DNA of 63,637 nt, counting the filler, from Licmophora abbreviata (Eukaryota), in the NCBI GenBank assembly GCA_900291995.1. It is 20 parts of 20 records of this genome, joined end to end, with 100 filler letters (N's around TTAATTAATTAA, not from the genome) between each part and the next. Parts side by side here need not be neighbours in the genome. Positions count along the whole stretch, not along the records: positions 4,343 to 9,698 come from OLMU01006333.1; 19 more parts are not named here. One strand, 5' to 3'. The notes under the pieces were generated by a model. It saw only the letters and a list, made by a program, of their open reading frames with translations. It ran no database searches and was not told the DNA's origin. Made by a program: the position numbers and the translations under genes. Shown here one piece after another: positions 1 to 47,690 of this stretch (its first letter is position 1; the number at the start of each line of letters is the position of its first letter).

Positions 1-3000
1 CTCAAAGATTAGTTTATTCTCCTAAACTGTTCGTACGAACTTTAACGACGCCGAGTCCTCCATGATAGGACAGGCGCGTCGTGCCGGATAGCTCCAGCAG
101 ATCCTCCATTGGTACCTCACTGACGTTCCGTCAAGATTATGACGTGGTCTCCTCCGAGCGGGTGAGAATCACCCTGGGGAGCTCCTATCAGTAGGTGGTC
201 ACCTCCTTTCTCCGTCCCCTTGTAACCACGAGTGTAGGGCCCTTTGTAGCACCCTGGTTTCCGAGAGCTCTGCCTCCTCGAACGCCTCTCGTGCCAACCT
301 AATTGCCGCCAGCCACGTCCGCTTCTCCTGGCCTGGCATGCCCTCGACAGTTTCCTTTCCTCGGAGCAGAAAGTGTTTATCCCGAGGGTATAAGTGCTCC
401 GTTCCTAGCTCAAATTGCGTGTGTATGGCTTCCTGTATCTCCGCTGCCTCTGCCAGCTTAAGGCCATGCTTGTCCCTTTTGTGTACGATTCCGTTTCGAT
501 GTACCCACATTTGGTGAGTTGCTGTCAGTAAGTGCGTCACCAGGCCTGTCGTCCATCGCTTCATGGAGTGCTTGGACTGTTTCTCACAGTAGAAGTCCCT
601 TTGGATTGCCCGCCATTTCCGAGATACTTTGCCCTCCAACAGATTTCGCCATCCGATGCGGTCTTGCTTGGCGGCAGCTTCTTTGATCTCCGCCGGCATG
701 TCGTGGCAGGTATCTACAAACCGTGTGTCGCCGTGTCGGGCCGTGATCGTCCTCACTATACACTGCCTTATCCCTGGATGCGTGTCCGCCCCGGCTAACC
801 AGGCGTCCAGCCCCTCCACAGCTCGCTGCCAGGCCGACTCCGCTCTGTCATCTGGGCAGCGTAAGATGTGTAGGGTGTCTTCACGTTCCGCGTGGCATAG
901 CGGGCAATGGTGTGTCTCCCATTGTCCCCAACGTTCCATCATACTACCGGTCGCGCAGAATCCACTGATGAATTTGGTCGCCCAAAGTCGAAACAGCGGT
1001 GCGAACGCCTCGAAGGCGTCGCCTGCCGCTTCCCAGTCAATTGTGTCGAAGGCGGTTGCCGGTAGCCGTCCTTTTTCCGCCAGGTGGTCGCGTAGCTTCC
1101 TGCCCCATACTTCGTGTTTGATTAACGAATCCGGGGAGGTGGTGGCTTTGACCCCTTGAACCCAGCAGCTCCATCCTTCATGGCTAATGTTCTGTGGGAC
1201 AGGTACCGGCTGGAGGAAAGAGAAAGAGTGTTGTAGGTATGACTTTGCCGTGGAGTCCATCATGACGTTGAGTTGCGAGAGGCGTGGAAGAGATTCGTAG
1301 CGCTGCAGGTCATCCTGATGCCCGTAGACGTGTTGAAGCTCGATGCTGATCGGGATCTGGTCTTTCAACTGCCGGATCGCCCGGATCAAGTCGACGTGCT
1401 GGGTGCGTATCCCCACTTTCAGCCAGTCCCCATTGGAGTAGTTGACTCCGGCTTTGTTGTCACAGCCCACCGTAATGCCTCCTTGGGTGAGTTCGAAGAA
1501 TTGGCATGCCGCCTTCAGTCCCAGAAGTAAACTATGGATCCCCTGCAATTCAGATCGGTATGCGTTGACCTCGTGTGTTTGCCCTGAGGTACGACATGCC
1601 CCCCTGAACTTGGTTTCGGATCCCTCCGATTCGATGATCCAGGCCGCTGTACCCAGGCTCTCGCTGAGGAGCGGCATATACGAGCCGTCGCACGCCCCTC
1701 TCGCCGTTCCCCGGGCGAGAGCTTCGACTAGTGGGTCCCAGTTCGCCGGAAAGCTGCTGACCTGCAGTGGCCAGGTGTCGTCCCAGGAATCTATGAGCTG
1801 GCGAACTGAAGCAATCACGGGAGGAGTCGGGAGTCGGAGTGGCGCTGCACCTTCCAACACTACCTGGTGAAGGTTCGTCCCCGCCTTGACCGTCGCATAA
1901 TGGAGGGTCCCAGGAGGGTTGCCGGTAAGGGCGCCGATACGAGTAAAGGAGGTTGTCCGTAGTGCCTGGCTGTGTGTGGGAGCGTATTCCAACCACGCTC
2001 CATACTTCTGCAGGTACAGCCTTCGGTCTTCTGGGGCGTAAAACCAGTCCCATGACTTGTGTGGCTCGGCCACCCAACTGCCCAGAGAACTAAATTCCGG
2101 CAGGCGCATCGATTCTGAGGAAATCCTCCGTAGGACCCTCCGCCAGGTACGAATGTCAGAGGGACTTGGCATTTCTCTCGGCCAGTCCCATCTGCTTGGT
2201 CTCTGGAGATCCGCTTGTCGCAAGAGGATCGCTGCTGGGGAGAGGCGTGTGCCATCCCCCGTGGTTACATCTGCCAGTGTCATCGCCTCTCAAAACAACC
2301 GGCAGCGATTAAAGGATTGCAGTTCACGCGGAGTGAATCCTTGTGTGTCCATTGCCAATTCCATCAGGAAAGCGTCGCCCGTGCGTTGTCGGGTCGGTAA
2401 GGTCTGAAGTCCGATTAAGCGGATATCGTTGTCGGACAAAAATTTCCACAAACATTTTATCCAGCAATCGGTGAGTAAGAAGCCCCACGAGTCAAACGGT
2501 GCCAGCAAGAGCGGGCTGCCAATACCCACTTCCAGCTGCGCCTGCTCCAGAGAGGCTCTAAAGAGGTCTCCAGTTAAGGTGGGGATGACTCCGTGTGTCA
2601 GAACCACTTTAATGTGTTCGATGGCCTGCTCTGTGTGGGGATGGGGAAGATCCAGTCCTTGGAGACTGAAAGGGGCATGTCGGAGGTAGAGAGGGAAGGA
2701 CCTGCATAGGCCCAGTTTGCCCAGGATGCTTTTGTAGAGGGGTTTCATGATGCTGTGTGCTTGCTTCTCAGACAGGGTCGTTGCCGGGAGGGGGTATCTT
2801 AGGGAAGCCCATATCGTCGACCTTAGTCCTTGCCACGCCACTCCTCTTGGTAGCCATGCGTCCTGTAGCGCCTCGGCCCATCTTGTAGCTCTGTTTGTCA
2901 GCGTCTCCGTTTGCTGTTGCATGTTACCGTCCCAGGCTTGATCGACCCCGACTACCGTGATAGCCTCCTGTACCCCGACTCTCCGTATCTCCCCTATGTC

Positions 3001-4242
3001 TCCTTCCGGGTTCGGCACTGTCAGGACTGTCTCCTCCGGTGCATCCGCGTATCGCCACACCCCATCCCTCCAGTCAAACGCAATCAAACACCACGAGCAT
3101 TTCTCTGGTTTGAGTGCTCCACGGGACGCCCTCAGTACGCCGTGCCACGTGGATACCGCTGCCTGCATTCGTTCCACCACCACGTCCGGGGGCTCCAGGG
3201 GGTGTCGTGCGACTGTGATCAGATCCGTATCGTCCACGAACAGGAACCCGACGAAGGAGATCAGCGCGTTCGAGAGAGCGCTGCTGAGTTCCGTGGTGTG
3301 ACCCTGCGATCGTAAGGCTTGTATCAGGACAACACTTACTGCCATCCATACCGCTGGACCCCCTCCATTACCTTGGCATGCGCCTTGGAATGGGATTGTG
3401 CGTCTGCCGCCGTAAAAGGACTCCGAGTCACCGAATGCTGTCCGCAAGTAAAACTTCATGAGTTGTAGGGTCATGAGCATGGTCACTACCGTATGCGCTT
3501 CCACCCCCCAGCGCTGGCAGCATAGCGAGGCAGCGGTGTGTGTGATCCTGTCGTAGCATGTCTGGGCGTCCACAGAGGCGCATGCAGCGTTCCTGCGTTT
3601 TTGTCGAAAGAGATCCGCGGCGAAACGACGATTGAGAGCGACTTCAATCGCCTGGTGGTTTTTCCGGCTTCCGTATGCCTCCGCTGGAAGCAGCTGCCAA
3701 TCCTCCGCCCATGTCATCATCCTGCTCCCGAAAATGGCTTTGTTGAAGAAGTTGAAATCCGCTTCCATGAGGAGAATCGCACGTAGTTTGTCGACTCTGA
3801 TCACCCCCTCCGATTTCTCCAACATAACCGATAGTCCGGCCTGCCAGCGGGGAAAACTATGGCCCGTGTGGCTAGCAATGTCCGTAAATAGGGCGTGAAT
3901 CTCGCTGATAAAATCGTTTCTGGCCGCGGGTTTCCAGTGACCAAAGTGTAGGCCGGAGATCGAGGATGACGTCTTCTCCCGTGCCTTTCGCCAGTACGCC
4001 TGGAAGTCTTGCCTCGTGATGTCCGCGCTGACTCCCTCATCTCCTCTTGGCACGGGCCGTTTCATGCCTTCGATGAACATTCTGGTGAACTGGTCAGTCC
4101 CTGGAGGACAGGTAAATTGTCCCTCTAGAATCTGTTGGGCCGCCGCCGAGATTCCCAAGAAGCCTAGTCGGTCGCGGAGAGGGTTCTGCATGAGAGGTGT
4201 TTGCTCCGTCAGACGGAACCGATGTACATTGTTGGCCATGAT
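1..4242 (-). mobile_element. Non-LTR retrotransposon (LINE) 3' part with RT, RNase H and C-terminal Zn motif; resembles diatom Ambal-type elements
   Basis: RT motifs KLRAILLMEADFN, DAQTCYDRI, FQGACQGNGGGP and FVDDTDL; RNase H motifs CDGS, RSELQG, GCDN, HVYGHQD and NVMMD; CPLC-x7-H-x3-C. The Ambal assignment comes from recalled family features, not from a search. Confidence 0.85.
199..4239 (-). pseudogene. LINE ORF2 (RT-RNase H), 5'-truncated, with one in-frame TGA
   Basis: ORFs 2290..4239 and 199..2283 share a frame and are separated only by TGA at 2292-2290 (CRLF*EAMTLAD). Confidence 0.8.
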
Positions 4243-4342: not shown

Positions 4343-4376
4343 AAGTGCTTCAACGGCAGCACCGATCTTCCAAACC

Positions 4377-6416
4377 ATGGAAGTACCCGTGCCGCCGCTG
4401 GTGAATCCGGGAGCGGTCCCGCTCTCGGATTACACGGCTTTCTACAACGACGATTCTAAGGATCACGCGGGAGGAGATTACGCTGGGATGATGGGAACGT
4501 TCTTGGTTCCCATGCACGGCGCGCCACCTCCCCTCACGATAGCCACAGCGGTCTATCAGTCCGCAACGGTCGATCCGCAGGCGTTCTTGCTGTTGGTCAC
4601 AGAGCCCGGTCACCTTGAAGGCCGGGTCATGGTTTTCCATCGGCTACAGCGTTTCGACCCTCAGTTGGGTAGGGAAACACCGTTCGACGGGCAAGGATTT
4701 GCGTTTGTGGGAGATGTGGTACGCGGCCAAGCGCCGCCGACGGTAGTCTGGGAAGCGACGAACTTCCATCAAGTGAATGGTGGGGGCGTGCGGGTTCCCA
4801 CCAGGGCAACCATCGACCAGGAACTTGCCGATCCCGGCCTTACCGTGTTCGACCCACCGGATCCTGATGACGCAGCTACGGACGTTGTCCGGGTGCGCAA
4901 CTCGGTACTGTTACCGTTCCGTTACGTGAAGTTCCTGCTTCCTGGGCCACTCACTCCGAGGGAAGCGTGGGAACAAGTCGCTGCCGTCATCGTCAACGAC
5001 GGCAACGAAGAGGTGTGCAAGCCAGTGTTGGACTGGCTTCGGGTAGCGTTGGTCCGGGATCATGGGGCTCAGGCCTCGCGCTTGGGCCGGGCGTTGCCTA
5101 CGGTGCCTCTAGCCCTGCCGGCGTTGACCGAGAGGCGTTGGGATCTCGTCACCAGGGATCTCCCAGCGCTCGGTACAGGTGCCACGCTGGCCGCAGGTAA
5201 TGCTATCGCGGCGGGCTTGAACAGTCTTGTGGCTGACAATCGAGCCAGCCGTCAAGCCGACCTAGCCACGCGCTTAGCCGACAGCGTAAAGACCCCGACG
5301 AAATACTTCGGGGCCGTAGGAGTCGCCAAGTTACTTCGGGTCTGCCAGGTGGCAGACGAGGCGAGCCTCCCGGCGGTCTGGAAGGATCTAGCGAGGTCTC
5401 CCAAGAAGCAGGACATTCTAGTCCTGCAGCAAGCCTTTAACGCGATGGCTCAAGACCAGCTGGGCTTACCGGGAAGCGACGTGCCGATCACCCCGGACAT
5501 CACCTCCAAGATCCGAAACCTGGCTTTCGAGATGACAAACGAGGAGGACCTGTCCACGGGACTGCACTGTTTCACGTTCGGTTACCAGAACGCGGTAGAG
5601 CGAGCGGCTGCATACGAGTTGGTGGAACGCTACCAACTGATGCAGCAGGGCCAAGGCGCACCTAGCTTAGCCGAAGCGGCATCGTTCAACCACTCGGCGG
5701 TGAGTGGGAAGTTACCGCAGACGCTCACGGAGAGCAGCATTTGCTTCACGAATACGCGGGTCGCCTTACACGTGTTACTCTCGAGCACGCATCCGTTGGT
5801 ACTGGCCTACGATCAGTTTTGGCGGGCGTGGGGTTCCAGTCAGGCACACCTACTAAACGTCCGGACGCGCCACCCGGGCATGCTACCGGCTCTGACGGTG
5901 CGTTGGGTGCAGCTACGGCTGTCTCTTTGGTTCGCCCAGCAGGCGACAGCCAACGCGGCAGTGGCGGCACCGGATTTTGTCCGTCTGCTCCACGATATTC
6001 GGCTCCAGACAGCGTGGGAACCTACGTTGCCGGGCCGTTTCTACGAGAACCCACCTGCCCAGGCTCCACTGGGGGGGCCAGCCGCCGCGCCATCGCCAGC
6101 CGGGAACCCACCGGCCCCTGGTCCGGCCGCCGGTGAGCCGCGATCTCACCCGGTGCGCAACACCGCCATGAACCCGGTCTTCGCTCCGTTTGGAGCGCTG
6201 CCAGTGCGAATCCTGGAGGTGCTGTCTAGGGCAGGATCGGGGAACCGACCACCTCGGAACGCGAATGGTTCCGAGGCATGCCTGTCCTACCACGTGAAGG
6301 GCATCTGCAACTCAGACTGCCGCCGACGCGACGACCACCGGGCGTACAGCGAGGCGGAGGACACAGCGCTGCTGGAGTGGTGTCGGCAGCACTACACCGA
6401 ACCACCTAGCAGCTAG
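4377..6416 (+). CDS. Gag-like protein with C-terminal CCCH-type zinc finger
   Basis: 679 aa ATG-initiated ORF with CLSYHVKGICNSDCRRRDDH near the C-terminus; strongly conserved with 43296..44451. Confidence 0.8.
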   Translation: MEVPVPPLVNPGAVPLSDYTAFYNDDSKDHAGGDYAGMMGTFLVPMHGAPPPLTIATAVYQSATVDPQAFLLLVTEPGHLEGRVMVFHRLQRFDPQLGRETPFDGQGFAFVGDVVRGQAPPTVVWEATNFHQVNGGGVRVPTRATIDQELADPGLTVFDPPDPDDAATDVVRVRNSVLLPFRYVKFLLPGPLTPREAWEQVAAVIVNDGNEEVCKPVLDWLRVALVRDHGAQASRLGRALPTVPLALPALTERRWDLVTRDLPALGTGATLAAGNAIAAGLNSLVADNRASRQADLATRLADSVKTPTKYFGAVGVAKLLRVCQVADEASLPAVWKDLARSPKKQDILVLQQAFNAMAQDQLGLPGSDVPITPDITSKIRNLAFEMTNEEDLSTGLHCFTFGYQNAVERAAAYELVERYQLMQQGQGAPSLAEAASFNHSAVSGKLPQTLTESSICFTNTRVALHVLLSSTHPLVLAYDQFWRAWGSSQAHLLNVRTRHPGMLPALTVRWVQLRLSLWFAQQATANAAVAAPDFVRLLHDIRLQTAWEPTLPGRFYENPPAQAPLGGPAAAPSPAGNPPAPGPAAGEPRSHPVRNTAMNPVFAPFGALPVRILEVLSRAGSGNRPPRNANGSEACLSYHVKGICNSDCRRRDDHRAYSEAEDTALLEWCRQHYTEPPSS

Positions 6417-6479
6417 GATGGAGGCGGGGGGGGACTGCGTGTATTTACGCAGTCCCCTCTGACGCCGCCCCCTGCATCC
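6414..6479 (+). promoter_or_regulatory. UAG plus stem-loop, candidate gag-pol readthrough signal (copy 1)
   Basis: TAG at 6414-6416; 11-bp stem 6430-6440 with 6447-6457; outer pairings GGCGG/CCGCC and GGATG/CATCC; pol is in the gag frame. Confidence 0.7.
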
Positions 6480-8870
6480 GCTCGACCAGCACCGCCGACG
6501 ACAACCACGACGACGACACGAAAACGAAAACACGTATCGGTGCAACAGCGATCTCAGGAGGCCACGGAACAGACTAACCCACTACGTAAGTACATGTTGA
6601 GAGACTCTCTTTTATTAGCTAGGCATGGCTGGCGATCCTTCGTCAATCAACGCCGCGGGCCAGGTGATTTTGGCGCCCTCAACATCGTCCATCCAGCCAA
6701 GCACCTTCTCCAACACCTTTCCAAGGCCGGGGCACCTGTCCTGTTTACAACGCCGCCCTGGGATCCACACCGAATCCACGCAGCCGCTATACGCGGCCCC
6801 CACAAGTCGGCCCTAGATCACGCCGATTTCCTACGACACGAAATGGCGGACATGATCCTCCGCAACCAATGGGTGGTCCTACCGTACGACACGGTTAAGG
6901 GACTACCGGGACTCCGACTCAGTCCGATCGGCGTCGTACCACAGCGGGACCGCCGCCCCCGTACGATAGTCGACTACACGTTCCATGGCGTGAACGACGA
7001 GACTCTGCGCCTCGCCCCATCCGAAGCCATGCGCTTCGGACAAGCATTCCAACGTCTCCTTGTGGCGATTGTCAATGCCGACCCCCGCCACGGGCCCGTG
7101 CACCTGTGCAAAATCGACATTGCCGACGGGTTCTATCGGGTTAAACTACGTACAGAAGACATTCCGAAGCTGGGGGTCAGCTTCCCCTCCGAGGTCGCTG
7201 GCCAGCACATCGTCGCGTTCCCACTCGTACTTCCTATGGGCTGGGTCAGCAGCCCTCCCTACTTCTGCGCGGCCACCGAGACGGTCGCTGATGTTACCAA
7301 CCTCCGAATCGAACGGGGTCACCGGCCGCCATCCCACCGGCTCGACCGGCTCGCCGAGACGGCCGCGCCCAAAGCACCGGACACTACATCACGACGCGGC
7401 ATCAACCATACAGCAGTTCCGCTAGATCCGAGTGCACCGCTACCTACGGAACACCGACGCCGCCCCCTCGGCCTGTTCGAAGTATATATCGACGATTTCT
7501 GCGGGTTGGCACAAGGCGGCCGGAAGCGCCGGCGCCGCCTCCGCCGCACCCTGTTCCATGTCCTCGATGAAGTATTCCGGCCACTGACGCACGACGACCC
7601 ACCGACCAGACAGGAACCCATCTCGGTCAAGAAACTTCGGAAAGGAGACGGCGACTGGGCCACCCGAAAAGTGCTGCTCGGATGGCTCGTTGACACTGTC
7701 GCCGGCACCCTCGAGCTTCCCCAACACCGCATCGACCGTCTCCACACTCTCCTGGACTCCGTGCCTCCCCACCAGCAGCGTGTCTCGCTGCGCAAATGGC
7801 ATCAGCTCCTGGGCGAACTCCGCTCCATGGCCTTAGCCATCCCTGGCGCCAGAGGTCTATTCAGTCACCTCCAAGCGGCGCTACGAGAACCCAGCGCCGG
7901 GCGCATCCGGGTTTCCAGCCATGTCCACGCCACATTAGACGATTTTCGGTGGCTGGCGCGAAGCCTGGAGACCCGACCGACGCGGTTACGGGAGCTTGTC
8001 GCCACGCCACCAACCATTCACGGTACGACCGACGCTAGCGGTGCAGGCCAAGGCGGGGTCATTCTCCCTCCGCCCAGACACGTACCCCGGCGTCACTCCC
8101 ATCACCCAGACGCGCCCCTGGTGTGGCGCGCACCCTTTCCCTCCGACATCCAGGCCAATCTCGTGTCCTACGACAACCCTCAGGGTACCATCACCAACTC
8201 CGACCTCGAGCTCACGGCGACTGTCATCCAACATGATATCCTCGCACAACACTTCGACACGCGGGAGCGCACCGTGCATACCGGCACGGACAACACGCCC
8301 GCCTTTTTCTGGCAGCGCCGAGGATCCACCTCCACCAACACTGCCGCGGCGTACCTCCTTCGTCTTCAAGCTCTCCACCAGCGATACCACCGCTATGTAC
8401 CGACTCACTCCTACTTGCCGGGAGTGCTCAATGCCATGGCGGATGATGCCTCCCGCCTGTGGCACCTTGACGACACTGCGTTGCTCACACACTTTGATTC
8501 CCTGTATCCCCAGCGCCTGCCGTGGCAACTCTGCCAGCCCTCGTCCGCGATGCTTTCTGCCGCGACCTCCGCGCTGCGAAAGCGGCGGCCCGTGCCGGAA
8601 TCGTTTCTTCTCGCGCCAACTCAGCCGATTCACACTGGCGCACATGGACCCACTTTTGCCAGTCCCTCCACCTGGATCCTACCCTCAAGGAAATCGAAGA
8701 TCCATCTGCCATCCTCCAAGTCTACATGCAACGCTACCGCACCGGCCAAATTGCTCCCCGTCACCAGCCTGTCAGAGCTCGAACGGTGGAGGACTCACTC
8801 CGTGCCGTCGGCCAAGCCTTTGCGACCATGGGGGCCGACGACCCACGCCTCAACACTTTCGGGAAAATAG
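6417..8870 (+). CDS. Reverse transcriptase plus RNase H (pol) of the YR retrotransposon
   Basis: RT motifs KIDIADGFY, LPMGWVSSP, YIDDF and LLGW; RNase H motifs TDASG, DLEL, TDNT and NAMADDASR. The frame is open from directly after the gag TAG. Confidence 0.9.
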   Translation, partial: DGGGGGLRVFTQSPLTPPPASARPAPPTTTTTTTRKRKHVSVQQRSQEATEQTNPLRKYMLRDSLLLARHGWRSFVNQRRGPGDFGALNIVHPAKHLLQHLSKAGAPVLFTTPPWDPHRIHAAAIRGPHKSALDHADFLRHEMADMILRNQWVVLPYDTVKGLPGLRLSPIGVVPQRDRRPRTIVDYTFHGVNDETLRLAPSEAMRFGQAFQRLLVAIVNADPRHGPVHLCKIDIADGFYRVKLRTEDIPKLGVSFPSEVAGQHIVAFPLVLPMGWVSSPPYFCAATETVADVTNLRIERGHRPPSHRLDRLAETAAPKAPDTTSRRGINHTAVPLDPSAPLPTEHRRRPLGLFEVYIDDFCGLAQGGRKRRRRLRRTLFHVLDEVFRPLTHDDPPTRQEPISVKKLRKGDGDWATRKVLLGWLVDTVAGTLELPQHRIDRLHTLLDSVPPHQQRVSLRKWHQLLGELRSMALAIPGARGLFSHLQAALREPSAGRIRVSSHVHATLDDFRWLARSLETRPTRLRELVATPPTIHGTTDASGAGQGGVILPPPRHVPRRHSHHPDAPLVWRAPFPSDIQANLVSYDNPQGTITNSDLELTATVIQHDILAQHFDTRERTVHTGTDNTPAFFWQRRGSTSTNTAAAYLLRLQALHQRYHRYVPTHSYLPGVLNAMADDASRLWHLDDTALLTHFDSLYPQRLPWQLCQPSSAMLSAATSALRKRRPVPESFLLAPTQPIHTGAHGPTFASPSTWILPSRKSKIHLPSSKSTCNATAPAKLLPVTSLSELERWRTHSVPSAKPLRPWGPTTHASTLSGK

Positions 8871-9673
8871 ACTTCCGTATCCAACGCCAACTCGCTGGAT
8901 ACAAACGGCAGGACCCGCCGCCTGACCGGGTCAAACCGATCCCGCTTCAAATCGTTCGGCACGTCCTCCAAGTCGCCTTCTCCGACAACAACTCTATCGG
9001 CAACCAAGCGATCGCAGACATGATCGTTCTTGCCTTCTTCTTCCTTCTTCGACCCGGCGAGTACACCGGCAAGCCCTCCGACACGACTCCTTTCAAGCTA
9101 CAGGACGTTCAACTCTACATCGGCCAACGGCGCTACCTCGCGACAACCATCCCTCTTGCCGATCTGCCCCGGGCCACCTTTGCTACGCTCACGTTCACCA
9201 ACCAAAAGAACGGTGTCCGCAACGAGGTCATCGGGCTGGGCCGCAGCGGCGAACCGCTGCTTTGCCCAGTCTTGGCTCTCACTCGACGTATCGAGCACCT
9301 CCGCCGTTCCACGGCTTCTCCCGACACACCGCTGGCCACTTATTACGAAATAGGCCACGCCCAACCGGTCGCCCCCAAGGACATCACCGCCGCCCTCCGC
9401 ATCAGCACTGCCATCGTTGGTCCCACCGTCGGCTTCCTTCCCGGCGACATCACCGCGCGCTCCCTGCGCGCAGGCGGCGCTATGGCACTGCTATGCGCCG
9501 ACGTCGATTCTGACCGCATTCGACTCATCGGCCGCTGGCGCAGTGACGAAATGCTCCGCTACCTACACGTACAAGCCGAACCCCTCATGCGTCACTTCGC
9601 CCGCCGCATGCTCCAAGGCGGTGACTTCACACTCCTTCCAAATCAGACAGTCCCTATCCATCCTGTCACTTAA
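8522..9673 (+). CDS. Tyrosine recombinase
   Basis: FFFLLRPGEY (Arg), QKN (Lys), ARSLRAGGA and IGRWRSDEMLRYL (Trp, Tyr); overlaps pol by 349 nt; start codon uncertain (GTG). Confidence 0.9.
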   Translation: MATLPALVRDAFCRDLRAAKAAARAGIVSSRANSADSHWRTWTHFCQSLHLDPTLKEIEDPSAILQVYMQRYRTGQIAPRHQPVRARTVEDSLRAVGQAFATMGADDPRLNTFGKIDFRIQRQLAGYKRQDPPPDRVKPIPLQIVRHVLQVAFSDNNSIGNQAIADMIVLAFFFLLRPGEYTGKPSDTTPFKLQDVQLYIGQRRYLATTIPLADLPRATFATLTFTNQKNGVRNEVIGLGRSGEPLLCPVLALTRRIEHLRRSTASPDTPLATYYEIGHAQPVAPKDITAALRISTAIVGPTVGFLPGDITARSLRAGGAMALLCADVDSDRIRLIGRWRSDEMLRYLHVQAEPLMRHFARRMLQGGDFTLLPNQTVPIHPVT

Positions 9674-9817
9674 CTACAACAAAAACAAAAAACAAAATNN
9701 NNNNNNNNNNNNNNNNNNNNNNNNNNNNNNNNNNNNNNNNNNTTAATTAATTAANNNNNNNNNNNNNNNNNNNNNNNNNNNNNNNNNNNNNNNNNNNNAT
9801 TTCCTCAACAAAGCAAG

Positions 9818-12800
9818 ATGGCTGACGACCCAGGAGGGGGCGCAGCCACCACAGGTGCGACAGGCGGAAACTCTCGCCGTCCAGGACGCAACCGTAACAG
9901 TTCCAATCGCCGCGGCAATCGAAACTCTTCGTCAATCGCGATAAAGGGCAAGACTGAAGCAATCAGTCAGCATGTGTACGACATCTCACCGAAGTACCGC
10001 AACACGTTCAACCGCACGACGGTCGAAATCGCCGGGTACATCGCCCGAACATTGCCAGGTGGTGGTGAGTTCCTCGATGCCATGAAACCAGACAATCTCG
10101 GTTTTCTTCCGCTCGATGACCCTCCATACCCTGAGAGCGGCGACCCAATGTCACTCGAAATCTGGAAACTCAGCATCAAGTCAGTTTTCAACAGACGGGA
10201 GAAACGCGCAGAATCCATGAAGCAAGCATTTGCCATCGTCCTTGGACAAGTATCCGAGGCACTGCAGGACCGTCTTGAAGCCGACGAATCGTTCGCATCA
10301 ATCCAGACATCATGTGATCTCATCGAACTTCTGACGTTGATCCGCCGCTGCATGCAAACTGGGTCAAGCAAAACCCAAGACATGCAAGCCCTACAAGAAG
10401 CTCAGGAGCGTCTCACTCTCTTCAAGCAGAGTCCCACTATGACGAATGCACGATTCCTCCAAAACTTCAACGATCTGGTACAGACATGTGAGCTCTATGG
10501 TATGTCTTTTGGGATTGAATCGTGGGAAGCCTTCCTTAACGTCGATCAATCAAGCGCCTCTGAGGCACAGATCGCCACTGCAAAAGAGAACGCACGAGAC
10601 AGCCACCTCGCCACACTTTTCCTACGGAAGTCTGATGACGGCCGGTACAAGGGTCTCAAGGCGGATATCCAGAATGCTTTCACACGCGGTTCCGATGAAT
10701 ATCCCAAGTCCATCACAGCAGCCTACGACTACCTTGTGAATTATGTCCCACCTCCTTATTATGGTGTGTCACACGACGAGCAACACGGTATGACTTTCGT
10801 CACGGACGAACAATCCGACACTCAGTCCGACCGTGGAGGACGTGGTGGTCGGGGCCGAGGACGTGGCTCTGGTCGAGGACGAGGGCGTGGAAGGAGCGGT
10901 AACCGCGGTCGACAAGATAGCACCCCGGGAACTGAAGAATCAGCCGCACATGTTGCAGATCAGCCGGACGAGACCCAGGATTCAGGCGACCAGACAACCC
11001 CAGCAGGCAATGATACTGTAGGAAACGATAATCTAGATCAGGATGATCAGTACGTTGACTACTGTAATCTAGCCAGGGCCGAGTCCTATCTCCAGTCTGC
11101 AGGACTCCCTAAACGTTGGCTCCTCCTTGACAGCTGTTCGTCCGCAACCATCATCTCTAATCCAAGTCTCCTTTCCAACATTCGAAAGTCAGAGACATCT
11201 CTCCCAGTCCGATCGCTCGGTGGACTTATTCACCTTGAGCACATTGCCGACTTTGGTGATTTCCCTGAACCAGTATGGTACCACCCGAATGGTATCGCCA
11301 ATATTCTATCCCTTTCGGACGTGTCAAAGCACTTTCGCGTTACCATGGATACCAACGAGTTCAACGGCCTCATCATCCACATCAACAGCGACACATTCCG
11401 CGTGTTTTCCAACTCTGCCAAGAACCTCTACCGGATTGACCTGAGTACAATGACAAACAGTGATGCCAGCCACTTTTGGGCTCCCACCATCGCTGCGGTC
11501 TCCCATCTGGAGACCGTCGAGGACATCAAGAAACTGTACCCTCGACGCCTATATGAACGGGCCATCCGTGCCCGCAAATTCCAAAACATCATCATGCGAC
11601 CGGGATCTCGCCAAATGAAGGACATTATCATCCCCCATATGCAGAACTGCCCCGTCACTAAAGCAGACATTGATGCTGCTGAGCACCTTTTCGGCCCCAA
11701 TCTTGGTGCCCTTCTTGGCCGTACCACTCGAACTACACCGGACCATGTTATTAATAATGTTGATCCGGTGCCCACCAACATCCTTCGAGTGCATCGTAAT
11801 CTCACGCTACTTATTGACATCATGTTCGTCAACAAGCTCCCTTTCTTTGTGACCATCTCCCGTCACCTCAAGTTTGGCACCATCGAGCCCCTCGACAATC
11901 GCCAGATTCCAACCATCGTGGCCAAGCTTCGCGCTGTTGTCAAACTCTACAATCAACGAGGCTTTAACATTAATGGCATATATGCTGACCACGAATTCGA
12001 GCCCCTGCGTGCTTCCTTTCCCCAGCTGAACACCGCAGCAGCCAATGAACATGTCCCCGAGATTGAACGCTTCATTCGCACGATTAAAGAGCGTACCCGG
12101 GCTGCCTACAACATGTTGCCCTACAAACACGTTCCCCGTCTCATGCTCCTTCACCTAGTTCGCAACGCCGTGTTCTGGCTTAACGCCTTCCCTCGCCAAG
12201 ACGGAATCTCCTCAGTCCATTCGCCCCGGTATATTCTAACTGGCCGCCATCTTGACTACAACAAACATGCCATCATTGAGTTTGGCGCTTACGTTCAAAC
12301 ACATGAAGAACACGACAACAGCATGGATCGACGCACGATGGGTGCCATTTGTCTTGGCCCCACTGGGAATGTTCAAGGTGGACATTGGTTCATGTCACTC
12401 ACATCCGGCTCGCGAGTCATTCGTTACCGCTGGACTCCCCTGCCCATGCCTACAGATGTCATCGTTCGCGTCTCTAACATGGGCCAGGCTCAAGGAATGC
12501 CCTCCACCGTCACATATTCAGATCGTGTCGGGCGGGAGCTCAGGAACAACCTCAACGAGATTGCCGACGATGCCTCACTTGACGACTCGACCTATGTCGA
12601 CGATGACATGTCCATCGCTTCCAGTGACTCTTCCCATCACAGCGACGACCAAAGTGCCACCGATGACAACAGCGCCGATGATGACGACAGCAGTGCCGGT
12701 GACGAAGACAGCAGCGATGATGATTACGACAGTGACGACGATCGCCCACCTGCAGGACTCCAACCCATGCTTGACGACCCTCTTGAGGCCCCTGTAGCGC

Positions 12801-15067: not shown

Positions 15068-15214
15068 NNNNNNNNNNNNNNNNNNNNNNNNNNNNNNNNN
15101 NNNNNNNNNNNTTAATTAATTAANNNNNNNNNNNNNNNNNNNNNNNNNNNNNNNNNNNNNNNNNNNNATTATTTCAATAGAAACGAAAACCCAAAGCGTC
15201 GCTCGCTCAACCGA

Positions 15215-24914: not shown

Positions 24915-25607
24915 ATGAAGCTCTTCATTCCCTTTGTGTATCTTGTGTCGTCGCTCACGACTGTTGCTGCCGCTCGCGAGTTGCAGGCCACATGTGTGGC
25001 TGACACGGCCGCCCAAGGTGCCGCCAACCCGACTTTGGCGGGTTATCGGACGACCTACAACGACATTATAATTTCAAACATTGAAACTCTCTGCCTTGAC
25101 GACAATGGCGAGCTTGATGCTTGTCTTGCTACCGCCGGTACACCTACGCTTGACGGGTCTGGCCTTGTGGACAAATTCTATACGGAATGCGTGGCGGTAG
25201 GCGGATCCGGCTGGACGTACGATGTAACTTTTGAATGTGGGCACACCGAAGTTCAAGAATACGACAAACTCTTCTTTTGTATGGACGGCGACTGTGACTC
25301 GACTGGAGCTTCCGAGATTGCCGCGACGCTCAACGGCATTCTCGGTGCCCCCTTTGACGCGGCCGGATATACCTGCGATTATACGCAAAGCAACCTCGAG
25401 GCTTTCGGGTTGCGGCCCGCATGTGTTGCTGACACGGCCGCCCAAGGTGCGGCCAACCCGGACATGGCGGCAGATAGGACGACCTACAACAATTTCATTA
25501 CTGGGTCCATTGAAGCCAACTGCTTTACTGCAAATGGCGAGCTTGATGCTTGTCTTGCTACCGCCGACACACCTACGAGGGTTAGGGTTAGGGTTAGGGT
25601 TAGGTAG
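24915..25607 (+). CDS. Secreted Cys-rich protein with a 143-aa internal repeat, truncated
   Basis: Signal-like MKLFIPFVYLVSSLTTVAAA; CVADTAAQGAANP...NGELDACLATA recurs with a 429-nt period (24991 and 25420); the second unit runs into telomere repeats. Confidence 0.7.
   Translation: MKLFIPFVYLVSSLTTVAAARELQATCVADTAAQGAANPTLAGYRTTYNDIIISNIETLCLDDNGELDACLATAGTPTLDGSGLVDKFYTECVAVGGSGWTYDVTFECGHTEVQEYDKLFFCMDGDCDSTGASEIAATLNGILGAPFDAAGYTCDYTQSNLEAFGLRPACVADTAAQGAANPDMAADRTTYNNFITGSIEANCFTANGELDACLATADTPTRVRVRVRVR
25578..25604 (+). repeat. Telomeric (TTAGGG)n tract, about 4.5 units
   Basis: AGGG TTAGGG TTAGGG TTAGGG TTAGG. Confidence 0.9.
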
Positions 25608-43295: not shown

Positions 43296-44451
43296 TTGGC
43301 CCGTCGCCAGGCGGATGGGGTGAAGACGCCCACCAAGTACTTCGGATCGGTGGGAGTGGCGAAGCTGTTGCGCATCTGTCAGGTGGCAGACGAAGCAGCC
43401 TTGCCCTCCCTGTGGAGGGACTTAGCCAACTCGCCGAAGAAACAGGACATGCTGGTCCTTCAGCAGGCTTTCAACGCTGCCGCCCAACATGAACTAAACC
43501 TTCCGGGAAGTGACGTCCCGATCACTCCTGACATCATGACGAAAGTCCGGAACCTGTCATTCGAGATGACAAACGACGATGATCTCTCGACGGGCATCCA
43601 CTGTTTCACGTTCGGATACCAGAATGCCGTGGAGCGGGCCGCAGCCTATGAGACCATTGAGCGATACCAGCTCATGCAACAAGGGGCGGGGGCACCGAGT
43701 CTAGCCGAGGCGGCATCCTTCAACCAATCTGCAGTCAGTGGGAAGCTCCCACAGACGCTTACAGAGGCCACAATCTGCTTCACCAACACCCGGGTAGCCT
43801 TTCATGTGCTCCTGGCCAGTGAGCACCCTGTGGTACAGGCATACGACCGGTTTTGGCATGCCTGGGGAGCGAGCCAGGCGCACCTACTGAACGTGCGCAC
43901 ACGCAACCCAGGTATGCTTCCGGCGTTAGCCGTACGCTGGGTCCAGCTACGGCTGTCCTTGTGGTTCGCTCAGCAAGCCACCACCAACGCAGCGGTGGCG
44001 GCCCCTGACCTCGTTCGATTGCTGTCACGACATCCGTCTCCAGGCCCCCTGGGAGCCCACGCTTCCGGGGAATTTCTACGAGGTGCCAGCTCCGGCACCA
44101 GCGGGTACCCCGGCAGCGCCCGCGACGGGCGGCGGGAGCCGGAATCCGGCCGGGGCCGCGAACACCGGTGAGCCCCAGCGGCAGCAGCCGGTGCGGAATC
44201 CCAGTATGAATCCCGCGTTCCAACCGTCTGCAGAACAGCCACTCCGTATCATCGAGGTACTCGGTCGAGCGGGCTCGGGTAATCGGCCCCCACGCACGAG
44301 CACCGGCGAGACCTGCCTCTCTTACCACGTGAAAGGGATTTGCAACTCGGATTGCCGGCGCCGGGACGACCATCGGGTCCACACCGAGGCGGAGGATGCA
44401 GCACTCTTGGAGTGGTGCCAGCGCTGGTATGTGCCGGCAACCTCCAACTAG
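43296..44451 (+). pseudogene. Gag-like ORF with a +1 frameshift near 44025
   Basis: An extra T in CTG-T-CAC-GAC breaks the LLHDIRLQ seen in copy 1; the CCCH finger follows in the shifted frame. Confidence 0.8.
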
Positions 44452-44514
44452 GATGGAGGCGGGGGAGGGTTGCGCATATTCGCGCAGTCCACCCTGACGC
44501 CGCCCCCTGCATCC
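44449..44514 (+). promoter_or_regulatory. UAG plus stem-loop, candidate readthrough signal (copy 2)
   Basis: Stem 44467-44475 with 44482-44490, carrying compensatory and wobble changes relative to copy 1. Confidence 0.7.
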
Positions 44515-46869
44515 GCTCTGCCACCACTCGAACGTACACGAAAACGAACACACCACGAATCGATGAAACAGGGCCCTCAGGAGGCTGGTATTAACAATTT
44601 ACGTAAGTACATTTTGCAAGATACGCGTCGTCTAGCTAGGATGGGTTGGAGGTCATTGGTCAAGCAACGGCGGGGACAAGGCGATTTCGGCAACCTCGAG
44701 ATCAACCACCCTGCCAAACACCTTCTTCAGTACCTATCTACAACAGGCGCACCGGTCTTGTTCACCACGCCCCCCTGGGCGCCACATCGAATACACGCAG
44801 CTGCGATACGCGGCCCCCATCAGTCGGCCATGGAGCACGAGGAATTTCTTCGTGGAGAAATGGTCGACATGATTCTCCGTAACCAGTGGGTGGTGCTCCC
44901 GTATGATGCGGTAAAAACACTACCCGGGCTACGTCTGAGTCCAATCGGCGTCGTACCTCAACGGGACCGCCGTCCCCGTACGATCGTCGACTACACATTC
45001 CACGGTGTCAACGACGACACTGTGCGACTTGCCCCGGCCGAGGCCATGCGCTTCGGGCAGGCCTTCCAACGACTCCTTGTGGATATTGTCAATGCTGACC
45101 CACGGCATGGGCCAGTACATCTATGCAAGATTGACATCGCAGATGGGTTTTATCGGATTAACCTACGCGCCGACGATATCCCCAAGCTCGGAGTTTCCTT
45201 TCCATCCGAGATCGCGGGCGAACACTTGGTGGCATTTCCACTCGTCCTGCCCATGGGGTGGGTCAGTTCTCCGCCTTTCTTTTGTGCCGCCACCGAAACC
45301 GTCGCTGACGTGACCAATCACCTCATTGACCGCGGTCATCGACCGCTACCACATCCTTTGGACCGGCTGGCTGATTCCGAGCCACAGCCAGAGGCGGCCC
45401 AAGCACACAAACAACCGAACCACTTGACGGCCGTCCGACTTCCATCGGGTCCCACGTCGATTCCAGAACGCCGTCGCCGCCCACTCGGCCGCTTCGAAGT
45501 TTATATTGACGACTTCTGTGGTGTAGCCCAAGGTGGCCGAAAACGCCGCCGCAAGATCCGGCGTACCTTGTTCCACACCTTGGACCAAGTCTTCCGACCG
45601 GTCTCCGGTGGCGACCCGCCGTCACGACAAGAGCCAATCTCAATCAAGAAGCTTCGAAAGGGTGACGGCCACTGGGCCACGCGGAAAATCATGCTCGGGT
45701 GGCTCATCGATACTGTTGCAGGCACTGTGGAACTTCCCGCCCACCGAGTCGATCGCCTCTGGGAGCTCCTGAACTCCGTTCCCGAGCACCAACAGCGAGT
45801 CTCCGTGCAAAAGTGGCAACAACTGCTGGGCGAGCTCCGATCCATGGCTCTGGCCATTCCCGGGGCGCGCGGCATTTTTAGTCACCTACAGGACGCCCTC
45901 AATCGTCACCTCAAGGGACGCATTCGCGTCTCCAGCCACGTCCGGGCCACTCTCCGAGATTTTCGTTGGCTGGCCTCAAGTCTTGAAGCTCGCCCAACTC
46001 GCCTCCGGGAGCTGGTAGCCACACCGCCTGTGCTCCATGGTACGACAGACGCCAGCGGACACGGACAAGGAGGCATCATCTTTCCGCCGTCGGCCGATGT
46101 ACCACGCCGGCATCCAATGCATCCCGACACCCCACTGGTGTGGCGCTCCCCCTTTCCAGCCGGCATCACCAACAAGCTGGTCACCTACGACAACCCCACC
46201 GGTAGCCTCACCAACTCTGACCTTGAGCTGTCAGCTACCATCCTCCAACACGATCTCTTGGCGCACTTGTTTGACGTACGCGAGCGTACGGTCCACACTG
46301 GCACCGACAATACGCCGGCGTACTTCTGGCATCGCCGGGGATCCATCTCTACCAACGCTTCCGCCGCGTACCTCCTGCGCCTCCAAGCCTTGCACCAACG
46401 TTTCCACCGGTACATTCCTACGCACTCCTACCTCCCAGGGGTGCTTAATTCCATGGCCGATGACGCCTCCCGACTGTGGCACCTCTCTGACAACCAGTTG
46501 CTCACCCATTTTGACGCTCATTATCCACAGCGCCTTCCGTGGCAGCTTTGCCAACCCCAGTCCTCGATGCTTTCCGCGTTGACCTCCGCGCTGCTCAAGC
46601 AGCGGCCCGATCCGGCATCGTTCCTTCACGAGCCAACGCCAGCGACGCCCACTGGCGCACGTGGAGCTCCTTCTGCCAAACCCTCCACCTGGATCCTTCC
46701 CTCGCGGAGATCGAAGATCCAACTACCATCTTACAAGTCTACATGCAACGATACCGGACCGGACAGATTGCGCCCCGTCACCAGCCTGTCCGATCTCGTA
46801 CAGTGGAAGACTCCATCCGCTCCATTGGTCAAGCCTTCGCGTCCGTGGGGGCCCAAGACCCCCGCCTGA
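44452..46869 (+). CDS. RT plus RNase H (pol), copy 2
   Basis: KIDIADGFY, LPMGW, YIDDF, TDASG and ADDASR; in frame with the gag C-terminus. Confidence 0.9.
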   Translation, partial: DGGGGGLRIFAQSTLTPPPASALPPLERTRKRTHHESMKQGPQEAGINNLRKYILQDTRRLARMGWRSLVKQRRGQGDFGNLEINHPAKHLLQYLSTTGAPVLFTTPPWAPHRIHAAAIRGPHQSAMEHEEFLRGEMVDMILRNQWVVLPYDAVKTLPGLRLSPIGVVPQRDRRPRTIVDYTFHGVNDDTVRLAPAEAMRFGQAFQRLLVDIVNADPRHGPVHLCKIDIADGFYRINLRADDIPKLGVSFPSEIAGEHLVAFPLVLPMGWVSSPPFFCAATETVADVTNHLIDRGHRPLPHPLDRLADSEPQPEAAQAHKQPNHLTAVRLPSGPTSIPERRRRPLGRFEVYIDDFCGVAQGGRKRRRKIRRTLFHTLDQVFRPVSGGDPPSRQEPISIKKLRKGDGHWATRKIMLGWLIDTVAGTVELPAHRVDRLWELLNSVPEHQQRVSVQKWQQLLGELRSMALAIPGARGIFSHLQDALNRHLKGRIRVSSHVRATLRDFRWLASSLEARPTRLRELVATPPVLHGTTDASGHGQGGIIFPPSADVPRRHPMHPDTPLVWRSPFPAGITNKLVTYDNPTGSLTNSDLELSATILQHDLLAHLFDVRERTVHTGTDNTPAYFWHRRGSISTNASAAYLLRLQALHQRFHRYIPTHSYLPGVLNSMADDASRLWHLSDNQLLTHFDAHYPQRLPWQLCQPQSSMLSALTSALLKQRPDPASFLHEPTPATPTGARGAPSAKPSTWILPSRRSKIQLPSYKSTCNDTGPDRLRPVTSLSDLVQWKTPSAPLVKPSRPWGPKTPA

Positions 46870-47690
46870 ACTCCTTCGGCCACATCGACTTTCGCCTGCA
46901 ACGACAACTCGCGGGCTACAAGCGACAAGACCCACCACCCGACAGAGTCAAGCCGATTCCAATTCAGATCGTCCGCCACGTTTTGGACGTTGCCTTCATC
47001 AATGGCAACTTCCCAAGCAACCAAGCAACCGCCGACATGATCGTGCTGGCCTTCTTCTTCCTCCTGCGCCCCGGCGAATACACCGGTGCCCCGTCCAACA
47101 CGACGCCTTTCCAACTCCAGGACGTCCAGCTGTGGATCGGACGCCAACGATACCTCGCCCAATCCATCCCCGTCCAAGATCTGCCGCGCGTCACCTTCGT
47201 CACCCTCACGTTCACCACCCAGAAGAACGGTGTTCGGAACGAAGTCATCGGCCTCGGCCGCAGCGGTGAACCTCTCTTGTGCCCTGTGCTTGCTCTTACG
47301 CGTCGCATTACTCATCTTCGACACGCAGGAGCACCACTCGACACCCCACTGGCGACCTACTACGAAGCCGGTCGCCGCCATCCGGTCAAGCCCAAGGACA
47401 TCACCATCGCTCTCCGTACCAGCACCGCCATTTTGGGGCCCACCGTAGGATTCCTCCCTACTGACATCACCGCGCGCTCCCTGCGCGCAGGGGGCGCCAT
47501 GGCTCTACTATGTGCAGACGTCGATACTAGCCGCATCCGGCTCATCGGCCGCTGGCGCAGTGATGAGATGCTCCGTTACCTTCACGTCCAAGCCGAACCA
47601 CTCATGCGGGACTTTGCCCGCCCCATGCTCCAGGGCGGCACCTTTAACTTACTCCCTAACCAGACAGTCCCTATCACGCCTGTCCTTTAA
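46539..47690 (+). CDS. Tyrosine recombinase, copy 2
   Basis: 383 aa, same length and catalytic motifs as 8522..9673; overlaps pol by 331 nt. Confidence 0.9.
   Translation: MAALPTPVLDAFRVDLRAAQAAARSGIVPSRANASDAHWRTWSSFCQTLHLDPSLAEIEDPTTILQVYMQRYRTGQIAPRHQPVRSRTVEDSIRSIGQAFASVGAQDPRLNSFGHIDFRLQRQLAGYKRQDPPPDRVKPIPIQIVRHVLDVAFINGNFPSNQATADMIVLAFFFLLRPGEYTGAPSNTTPFQLQDVQLWIGRQRYLAQSIPVQDLPRVTFVTLTFTTQKNGVRNEVIGLGRSGEPLLCPVLALTRRITHLRHAGAPLDTPLATYYEAGRRHPVKPKDITIALRTSTAILGPTVGFLPTDITARSLRAGGAMALLCADVDTSRIRLIGRWRSDEMLRYLHVQAEPLMRDFARPMLQGGTFNLLPNQTVPITPVL

Follow-up and report, generated by a model that had tools for sequence, protein, structure and literature searches.

Readthrough of a stop codon is one known route by which retrotransposons make a Gag-Pol protein, and a survey of in-frame gag/pol stops by Gao and co-workers, which appeared in RNA in 2003, reportedly dealt with long terminal repeat (LTR) elements and not with tyrosine-recombinase elements. 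To our knowledge, it has not been established how tyrosine-recombinase (YR) retroelements set the ratio of structural protein to enzyme. Here we analyze a YR retroelement family that is represented by two copies in a 63,637-base stretch of DNA from the alga Licmophora abbreviata (assembly GCA_900291995.1; hereafter, the window). In this family a single in-frame stop codon separates open reading frame 1 (ORF1), which is gag-like by position, from the pol ORF, and programmed readthrough of that stop probably yields a fusion of ORF1 to reverse transcriptase (RT) and RNase H.

Among the closest described systems are viral ones. According to the accessible portion of one recent account, the RNA structures that stimulate readthrough begin between +9 and +16: at +12 in Moloney murine leukaemia virus (MoMLV), Venezuelan equine encephalitis virus (VEEV), and Colorado tick fever virus (CTFV), at +16 in Sindbis virus (SINV), and at +9 or +13 in chikungunya virus (CHIKV) (PMC13517186). 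For YR retroelements, the available text of several accounts is confined to ORF order, ORF overlaps, and frameshifted recombinase ORFs (PMC8547959, PMC3783388, PMC6681497, PMC3266345), and the excerpts at hand of three others likewise describe these features and no leaky stop (PMC7192593, PMC2806351, PMC8226300). The first-pass annotation of this DNA proposed UAG readthrough between gag and pol, a mechanism that is not known to have been described for YR retroelements. Our searches of the full-text literature found no description of gag-pol readthrough in one, although a remark in the founding Ngaro/DIRS papers or in Poulter and Butler 2015 is possible.

The window joins 20 contigs of 1.2-5.4 kb through N44-TTAATTAATTAA-N44 fillers, and apparent ORFs that cross these fillers, such as 9818-15115, are partly artefacts. 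Copy 1 occupies the contig at 4343-9698 and copy 2 the contig at 43294-47942, the start of which cuts off the 5' part of its gag; the two are 72-73% identical across 4.4 kb (72.1% in the 4.4 kb alignment). The first-pass annotation had placed pol in the gag frame with one amber codon between them, and this is the arrangement seen in both copies. In copy 1 a single frame is open at 4344-6413, is interrupted by TAG at 6414-6416, and is open again at 6417-8867; in copy 2 the corresponding intervals are 43930-44448, 44449-44451, and 44452-46866. Insertions and deletions between the stop and the first pol motif total 18 nt and preserve the frame. The peptide that follows the stop is conserved between the copies, as had been claimed, and the identical nucleotide blocks described there are real and slightly longer than was given (18 nt at 6413-6430, the fifth longest identical run of the alignment, and 25 nt at 6459-6483, the second longest). 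The changes listed for the inner stem were also found, namely one double change from U-A to C-G and two changes to G-U wobble pairs. The 66-column segment that begins at the TAG is 86.4% identical and ranks 67th of the 4372 such segments in the alignment of the two copies. The first in-frame ATG past the stop lies at 6594 in copy 1 and at 44563 in copy 2, which are non-equivalent places. Of the two copies, only copy 1 has all three ORFs intact; the gag of copy 2 is frameshifted at a point where tblastn segments switch frame, which reflects either a decayed copy or an assembly error.

Relatives of pol are numerous: at least 1209 of 8000 scored candidates matched at E <= 1e-5, and almost all of them are unnamed metagenome proteins, the single named match among the best 120 being from the diatom Mayamaea pseudoterrestris. 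An alignment of the two copies with 29 of the 120 listed homologs, picked for long coverage, was used to scan metagenomes and confirmed 292 relatives, of which the best 80 represent 78 distinct loci with pol sequences 41-61% identical to that of copy 1. A scan of viral contigs with an alignment of the two pol copies returned no relative. The 78 metagenome loci and the two copies make up a set of 80 loci, in 14 of which the pol frame runs off the contig end and in 66 of which the stop could be mapped; collapsing the latter at >=90% identity over 110 nt past the stop left 53 non-redundant loci. What was noticed in two copies holds across a large family of diatom type and includes a newly defined RNA element.

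All 66 mapped loci hold a stop at this position. A match to the C-terminus of gag (tblastn with copy 1 gag) was found in 56 of them, and in every one of the 56 it lies in the pol frame and ends 0-25 codons before the single stop, which is TGA in 40 loci, TAG in 15, and TAA in one. Among the ten remaining loci, two have upstream ORFs of 786 and 658 codons with a same-frame gag match that ends earlier, four lack a detectable gag match and have an in-frame ORF of 600-791 codons upstream, three are cut by the contig end, and one (L048) has its gag match in another frame. The upstream ORF ends within the contig in 34 of the 56 loci and measures 689-752 codons in 26. On a FastTree phylogeny of pol with 47 non-redundant rows, the identity of the stop changed at least six times, at least four of these changes being forced by well-supported branches, and none of the 47 rows carries a sense codon there. 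The proposal of UAG readthrough is upheld in one part and corrected in another: all 56 loci with the gag match retain the shared frame and the single stop, whereas the stop is not specifically UAG, since UGA is the commonest and UAA also occurs. Reassignment of a codon is excluded because the stop can be any of the three. The base that follows TAG is always G, and that following TGA is A in 21 loci, C in nine, T in six, and G in four. A bias is also present in the last codon of ORF1: 40 of 52 loci have G as its first base (-3), and at -2 and -1 almost every locus has A or C.

The distribution of the stop bears on whether it could be an inherited inactivating mutation in dead copies, with the hairpin behind it a product of chance. 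Decay is evident in the family, as ORF1 is shortened in 8 of the 34 loci, copy 2 with its frameshift among them. A dead lineage is nevertheless difficult to reconcile with a stop that is present in all mapped loci across the observed range of pol identities, that has turned over repeatedly and never to sense, and that is flanked in most long loci by otherwise intact ORF1, pol, and ORF3 and by a hairpin that covaries. We consider this explanation extremely unlikely.

The sequence between the stop and the first conserved pol motif, here termed the linker, bears on where translation of pol begins. Further in-frame stops past the UAG, a weak point that the first-pass annotation had foreseen, are absent: across the 53 loci the 4640 linker codons include none, whereas stops make up 5.0% of codons in the other two frames, and the median per-locus chance of an open linker is 0.02. 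Among 11 disjoint pairs of related loci, substitutions at codon positions 1, 2, and 3 number 136, 116, and 217. This third-position bias is weaker than in gag or pol and its direction is that of coding sequence; codons were paired with the help of the protein alignment, a choice that slightly favors a coding result. By these comparisons the linker evolves like coding sequence and is probably read as protein. Pol could alternatively be translated separately, by reinitiation after ORF1 or from an AUG or non-AUG start in the linker, with the hairpin aiding initiation or having some other role. An in-frame ATG is indeed present in the linker of 29 of the 53 loci, and the pol proteins predicted by gene callers start in the linker. 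However, the position of this ATG is not conserved (6-209 codons past the stop), 24 of the 53 loci offer no in-frame ATG ahead of the conserved pol domain, and separate initiation would not demand that pol share the frame of ORF1, that it open exactly at the stop, or that a hairpin be fixed 6 nt behind the stop. We therefore regard separate initiation as improbable. Amid the variable, proline-rich linker most members carry a basic patch (RKRK, KRQR, KRPR, etc.; 6516-6530 in the window), which could be a nuclear localisation signal.

One pattern recurs in the 100 nt that follow each stop. Six variable bases separate the stop from GGC, after which come a variable hairpin, a short loop on the 3' side (mostly UGA, UGU, or UAA), N-GCC as the closing strand, and usually ACC. 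The hairpin set comprises 52 of the 53 loci; L009 was left out, as AGG replaces GGC there, yet it has a strong hairpin one base further on. Within this set +10 and +11 are G in 52 of 52 loci, and +12 is C in 50 and T in two, where T can form a G-U wobble pair; GGC accounts for only 35% of the glycine codons in pol. The shortest hairpin measures 23 nt and the longest 119 nt, and the length leaves a remainder of two on division by three in 49 of 52 loci. The 5' arms have a mean pairwise identity of 0.34, the inner helices share little sequence, and the apical loops are not conserved. Subfamilies thus differ in the inner sequence of the hairpin, yet its two sides remain complementary. Duplexes of each 5' arm with its own 3' arm average -12.1 kcal/mol, versus -6.9 kcal/mol for swaps between loci, and none of 10,000 permutations was as low. 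Pairing at the fourth position occurs in 43 of 52 loci, versus 19.7 expected under independence, and the pair is G-C in 20, U-A in 11, C-G in six, A-U in four, and G-U in two. Because the 3' partner of this pair is the second base of a codon, the amino acid at that place (Ser/Thr, Lys, Arg, or Met) follows the RNA pairing and not the reverse. Composition-matched z-scores average -3.08, with 36 of the 52 hairpins below -2, compared with a mean of -0.15 for 156 control segments from the same loci (Mann-Whitney p 2e-21). These scores replaced an earlier and cruder one (energy plus 0.33 kcal per nt), which performs poorly for long AT-rich hairpins; judged by it against other GGC...GCC sites, 27 of 50 true sites fell in the best tenth and 8 of 50 were the best.

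In the two copies, the fold of a 72-nt segment in copy 1 reaches -43.1 kcal/mol (z -4.7, none of 200 shuffles as good) and that of copy 2 reaches -35.6 kcal/mol (z -2.5, 5 of 200 shuffles as good). Of the covarying stem-loop that had been claimed, it is the hairpin closed by GGC/GCC, 6 nt past the stop, that constitutes the conserved core and that covaries. The candidate outer GGAUG/CAUCC pairing, which would reach the G of the UAG, is identical in both copies and was not seen in the other loci read. Rfam returned no match in 4343-9698. The structures seen suggested no pseudoknot like that of murine leukaemia virus, no dedicated pseudoknot prediction having been made, and the hairpin has the appearance of a stem-loop, plain or extended. 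Both copies also contain an out-of-frame ORF of 14 codons that runs from an ATG in the spacer to the conserved TGA of the 3' loop (6418-6462 and 44453-44497); the spacers of other loci mostly lack an ATG, and this ORF is probably incidental.

Several tests are independent of where the hairpin ends were set by hand. Of the 29 short hairpins, 27 (all but L016 and L073) were aligned with MAFFT and not fitted to structure. In this alignment 78.5% of cells are paired versus 68.6% in shuffles, and covariation is 0.214 versus 0.096, the former not being reached in any of 500 shuffles; when the 3' partners are shifted by one column, pairing falls to about 51%. Folding of aligned homologs with RNAalifold, a check that had been suggested at the outset, recovered the base helix unaided: a 4-bp base helix is predicted on the short-hairpin alignment, and for 14 long hairpins (13 of the 23 long ones plus L067) the base helix and five further pairs are predicted, with two-sided changes in four of the nine pairs. 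Covariance models built from these two sets were searched over the window and the 78 loci, 493,519 nt in all, on both strands. The short-hairpin model (R1) gave 46 matches at E <= 1, all on the plus strand, of which 44 start exactly at mapped stops (that in copy 1 at 6414) and two at the stops of second tandem copies; 19 of the 46 lie outside the training stretches and include long hairpins with ends equal to the manual ones. The long-hairpin model (R2) gave 37 matches, again all on the plus strand, 34 at mapped stops and three at further copies. One covariance-model match, truncated by the start of contig L037, is the sole exception to a start at such a stop. Together the two models cover 61 of the 66 mapped stops and miss L009, L010, L016, L039, and L073, and neither has a match in the 493,519 nt other than at such stops. 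In an alignment fitted to the model, which leans towards structure, pairing is 83.0% versus 71.2% in shuffles and covariation is 0.316 versus 0.130.

A hairpin at the junction might instead serve packaging, dimerisation, binding of the ORF1 protein, or reverse transcription, with readthrough occurring at a basal level that does not depend on it. Retroelement RNAs do carry signals of this kind, and the hairpin is the sole conserved RNA element found so far in this family. Such a signal, however, need not hold a fixed distance of 6 nt from the stop across hairpins of such different lengths, and an in-frame pol that lacks its own start would still require that ribosomes pass the stop. We give this explanation little weight, a shade less than separate initiation.

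Pol lies in the frame of ORF1, has no conserved start, opens exactly at the stop, and has a covarying hairpin locked 6 nt behind that stop, a combination that is the hallmark of programmed readthrough with a 3' stimulator. We therefore favor the hypothesis that the fusion is made by programmed readthrough and consider it likely. Most ribosomes on ORF1 would end at the single in-frame stop, and a minority would insert an amino acid at it and translate on through the linker, about 30-180 codons long, into RT/RNase H, producing an ORF1-Pol fusion as in gammaretroviruses. When the stop is in the A site, a hairpin 6 nt past it would stand at the mRNA entry channel and could act as the stimulator. 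The closing helix begins at +10 and the main helix at about +15, both inside the +9 to +16 range given in the accessible part of the comparative account (PMC13517186). What the comparisons show directly is a conserved architecture, a covarying RNA structure, and a linker that has the character of coding sequence; the occurrence of readthrough, its stimulation by the hairpin, the residue inserted, and the efficiency are inferences. The gammaretrovirus-like Gag-RT-RNase H fusion put forward in the first-pass annotation gains support from these comparisons of frame, stop, and hairpin.

A number of observations weigh against programmed readthrough. The best-studied cases have spacers of 8 nt or more, compared with 6 nt here, and the contexts that follow the stop differ from the classic leaky hexanucleotides, as far as the available text of that account goes (PMC13517186). 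The closing helix of the hairpin is only 3-4 bp, six of the 52 hairpins are weak (z above -1.3, that of L016 being positive), and the manual setting of hairpin ends favors pairing somewhat. To these must be added the linker ATG codons and the shortened ORF1 sequences described above, the latter indicating that many copies are decayed. All loci, moreover, belong to one family, and the architecture is a single ancestral trait that has been kept and not 56 independent events. Finally, in a search of sequencing runs the only match was a marine metagenome DNA run (0.13 of words), and no RNA run was listed.

The coordinates of the features in the two copies are collected in the table.

Table. Features of the YR retroelement copies in the window (positions along the whole stretch)
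Feature	Position	Strand	Remarks
ORF1, gag-like by position only	4377..6413	+	679 codons, ATG at 4377
In-frame TAG between ORF1 and pol, candidate readthrough codon	6414..6416	+	
Spacer, stop to hairpin	6417..6422	+	6 nt
Linker, stop to first conserved pol motif	6417..6581	+	55 codons; holds hairpin and basic patch RKRK
pol ORF	6417..8867	+	817 codons; RT with YIDD; RNase H-like TDAS / E / D motifs
Hairpin	6423..6466	+	closed by GGCG/CGCC; small asymmetric loop (3' side UGA); 15-bp main helix; -34.6 kcal/mol, z -7.7
CATCC, can pair with GGATG at 6416-6420	6475..6479	+	outer pairing, identical in both copies
Candidate intron	6586..8513	+	1928 nt; GTAAGT donor in first pol motif; CCCCAG acceptor 16 nt into ORF3 frame
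ORF3, tyrosine recombinase (by model)	8498..9670	+	391 open codons; -1 frame relative to pol
Copy 2 gag frameshift relative to copy 1	44020..44024	+	tblastn segments switch frame
Copy 2 in-frame TAG	44449..44451	+	
Copy 2 pol ORF	44452..46866	+	805 codons
Copy 2 hairpin	44458..44501	+	z -3.4; covariance-model matches start at 44449
Copy 2 ORF3, tyrosine recombinase (by model)	46515..47687	+	

The enzymes of the element were assigned with different degrees of support. The RT family RVT_1 of Pfam matches 22 of 31 family members (best E 8.1e-6); the pol of copy 1 itself scores 20.3 bits, under the curated cut-off of 29.6, and carries a YIDD motif in its translation. The RNase H assignment comes from the TDAS / E / D motifs in the translation only, with no match to a Pfam family or to a PDB sequence. 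ORF3 overlaps pol by 370 nt in copy 1 in the -1 frame (8498-8870, and 46515-46869 in copy 2), and nearly all of the 67 loci that match ORF3 share this arrangement, with overlaps of about 320-660 nt. No ATG precedes the conserved N-terminus of ORF3 in either copy, the first Met being codon 76, and in-phase slippery heptamers, sought over a few dozen bases at the start of the ORF3 frame, occur in only 3 of 40 loci. Sequence profiles from Pfam and the PDB gave no match to ORF3. An AlphaFold2 model built from 12 family members of the 67 (L001 was dropped, as it has a stop in the stretch) has a mean pLDDT of 81, and Foldseek matched it to 38 PDB chains at E <= 0.001, the best being Cre recombinase (E 1e-7, TM 0.5-0.6). 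ORF3 also carries the sequence motifs LRPGE, RSLR, and GRW...Y. Because the predicted structure matches Cre recombinase, the element is classified, on the strength of this model, as a tyrosine-recombinase retroelement.

No Pfam family of methyltransferase, protease, or DDE integrase was matched in pol, ORF1, or ORF3, although the absence of a match is weak evidence. With RT, RNase H-like motifs, a recombinase, and no methyltransferase match, the element looks Ngaro-like. Its earlier assignment to the DIRS order is borne out in that RT and the recombinase were found, with the qualification that the upstream ORF deserves the name gag by position only. ORF1 itself matched no Pfam family and no PDB sequence. 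An Atlas search with it gave a best score of 0.83, which is only a lead, and the best cluster is a hypothetical protein with a diatom record; ORF1 homologs of 650-779 codons occupy the same position in 25 loci. Near its C-terminus, at 6279-6338 and some 25-45 codons before the stop, ORF1 has a conserved Cys/His motif, C-x3-H-x4-C-x3-C-x5-H ... W-C, which may bind zinc.

The contigs of the window end within 34 nt of the ORFs; in L033, L040, and L064 no direct, inverted, or split direct terminal repeats (A1 ... B1 A2 B2) were found. Four metagenome contigs hold two copies of the junction 5.8-6.5 kb apart, namely L023 (2556, 8322), L025 (509, 6966), L037 (start, 6029), and L078 (927, 6784). The junction copies are near-identical in L023 and L078, the two that were checked, and L037 wraps around. 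These contigs suggest tandem arrays, or circular forms in the assembly, whose repeating unit is about 6 kb long and includes only about 400 nt of non-coding DNA. In L064, a 93-nt unit is repeated three times in tandem at 9305-9582, directly after the recombinase ORF.

The window contains two other retroelements, one with a 649-codon ORF at 2290-4239 on the minus strand (RVT_1, E 8.9e-7) and one with a long Copia-type polyprotein at 9818-15067 on the plus strand (RVT_2, E 1.5e-16). A short run of TTAGGG-type telomere-like repeats lies at about 25590-25605, near the end of the contig at 24390-25621.

A further set of conserved signals flanks the RT/RNase H region. The first pol motif, L-[G/S/R]-[K/E/T]-[Y/F/L/C], is coded as (C/T)TA GGT RNG Txx, which reads AG/GTRNGT. 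When this peptide motif was located without reference to the bases, which was possible in 48 of 53 loci, its Gly codon was GGT in 41 of 41 cases (background 0.23), its Glu codon GAG in 24 of 24 (0.47), its Lys codon AAG in 18 of 18 (0.57), and its Thr codon ACG in 6 of 6 (0.19), and the codon that follows began with T in 47 of the 48 loci. The donor-like sequence is thus maintained through the choice among synonymous codons. On the ORF3 side, a conserved pyrimidine tract followed by CAG lies 16-76 nt downstream of the point where the frame opens, and as much as 310 nt downstream in three loci; the Gln codon there is CAG in 30 of 30 cases (background 0.46) and the Lys codon AAG in 5 of 5, with CTCAC or CTAAC about 25-30 nt upstream. 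These sites, which lie at 6582-6596 and 8484-8524 in copy 1 and at homologous places in the metagenome loci, look like 5' and 3' splice sites. The candidate intron measures 1883-2159 nt in the 34 loci with both ends, and its length leaves a remainder of two on division by three in all 34; its removal would therefore join the post-stop linker in frame to the recombinase. This agreement of frame is a single one-in-three coincidence inherited by all loci.

It is possible, if doubtful, that one leaky stop serves two enzymes, with unspliced RNA yielding ORF1 and ORF1-RT/RNase H and spliced RNA yielding ORF1 and an ORF1-recombinase fusion, each fusion under the control of that one stop and its hairpin. 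We know of no retroelement for which such a combination of one stop and splicing has been described. The recombinase could also have its own start, since a Met aligned with GTG 8522 is the first residue of many homologs and a single ORF of transcriptome origin, annotated as complete, begins there too; this is compatible with splicing, and both could hold at once. The same splice-like signals raise the prospect that RNA of this family is spliced and that the stop itself is removed from a pol mRNA with no recoding at all. We judge this very unlikely, given that in the loci read no conserved GT...AG pair brackets the stop, that ORF1 homology reaches to within 0-25 codons of the stop, and that the sequence behind it has frame-preserving lengths and no stops.

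If programmed readthrough is correct, this order of retroelements would possess a solution like that of retroviruses, probably arisen separately, and its stimulator would add a class that is compact, highly variable, and functional with any of the three stop codons. Diatoms are ecologically dominant algae for which genetic tools exist, and the family would provide a natural recoding signal for them. For annotation, ORF1 and pol, which gene callers now split, should be joined across the stop.

Among described elements, the family resembles Ngaro-type YR retrotransposons, with which it shares the order ORF1, RT (here with RNase H-like motifs), and recombinase and the lack of a methyltransferase match, as far as the accessible text of the relevant accounts goes (PMC3783388, PMC6681497, PMC3266345). 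It differs in its overlap of about 320-660 nt between pol and the recombinase, Ngaro elements being usually without ORF overlaps in the portion available of one of these accounts (PMC3266345), and the split direct repeats of Ngaro-type elements were not found in L033, L040, and L064. LTR/Ngaro repeats have been reported in diatom genomes, according to the excerpt available of a preprint (bioRxiv 10.64898/2026.04.27.720831).

With respect to recoding, the alphavirus and coltivirus stimulators of VEEV, SINV, and CTFV have UGA followed by CGG or CUA, whereas here the next base varies and the hairpin has an invariant GGC/GCC closing helix and a length of 23-119 nt; common to both, in the accessible part of the source, are a long coding stem-loop at +9 to +16 and conserved flanks that pair across a variable middle (PMC13517186). 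The gammaretroviral gag-pol junction differs in several respects. Moloney murine leukaemia virus uses UAG and a downstream pseudoknot with an 8-nt spacer, as far as the available descriptions go, in contrast to the stem-loop with an asymmetric internal loop, the 6-nt spacer, and the mostly UGA stops found here, and the present family has no match to a protease or integrase family, encodes a tyrosine recombinase, and resides in a diatom-type alga. Even so, the two systems share one frame, a single stop, a purine-rich spacer, and a close downstream RNA structure, and in both a minor Gag-Pol fusion is the expected outcome, to judge from the accessible text of two accounts (PMC4178896, PMC13517186).

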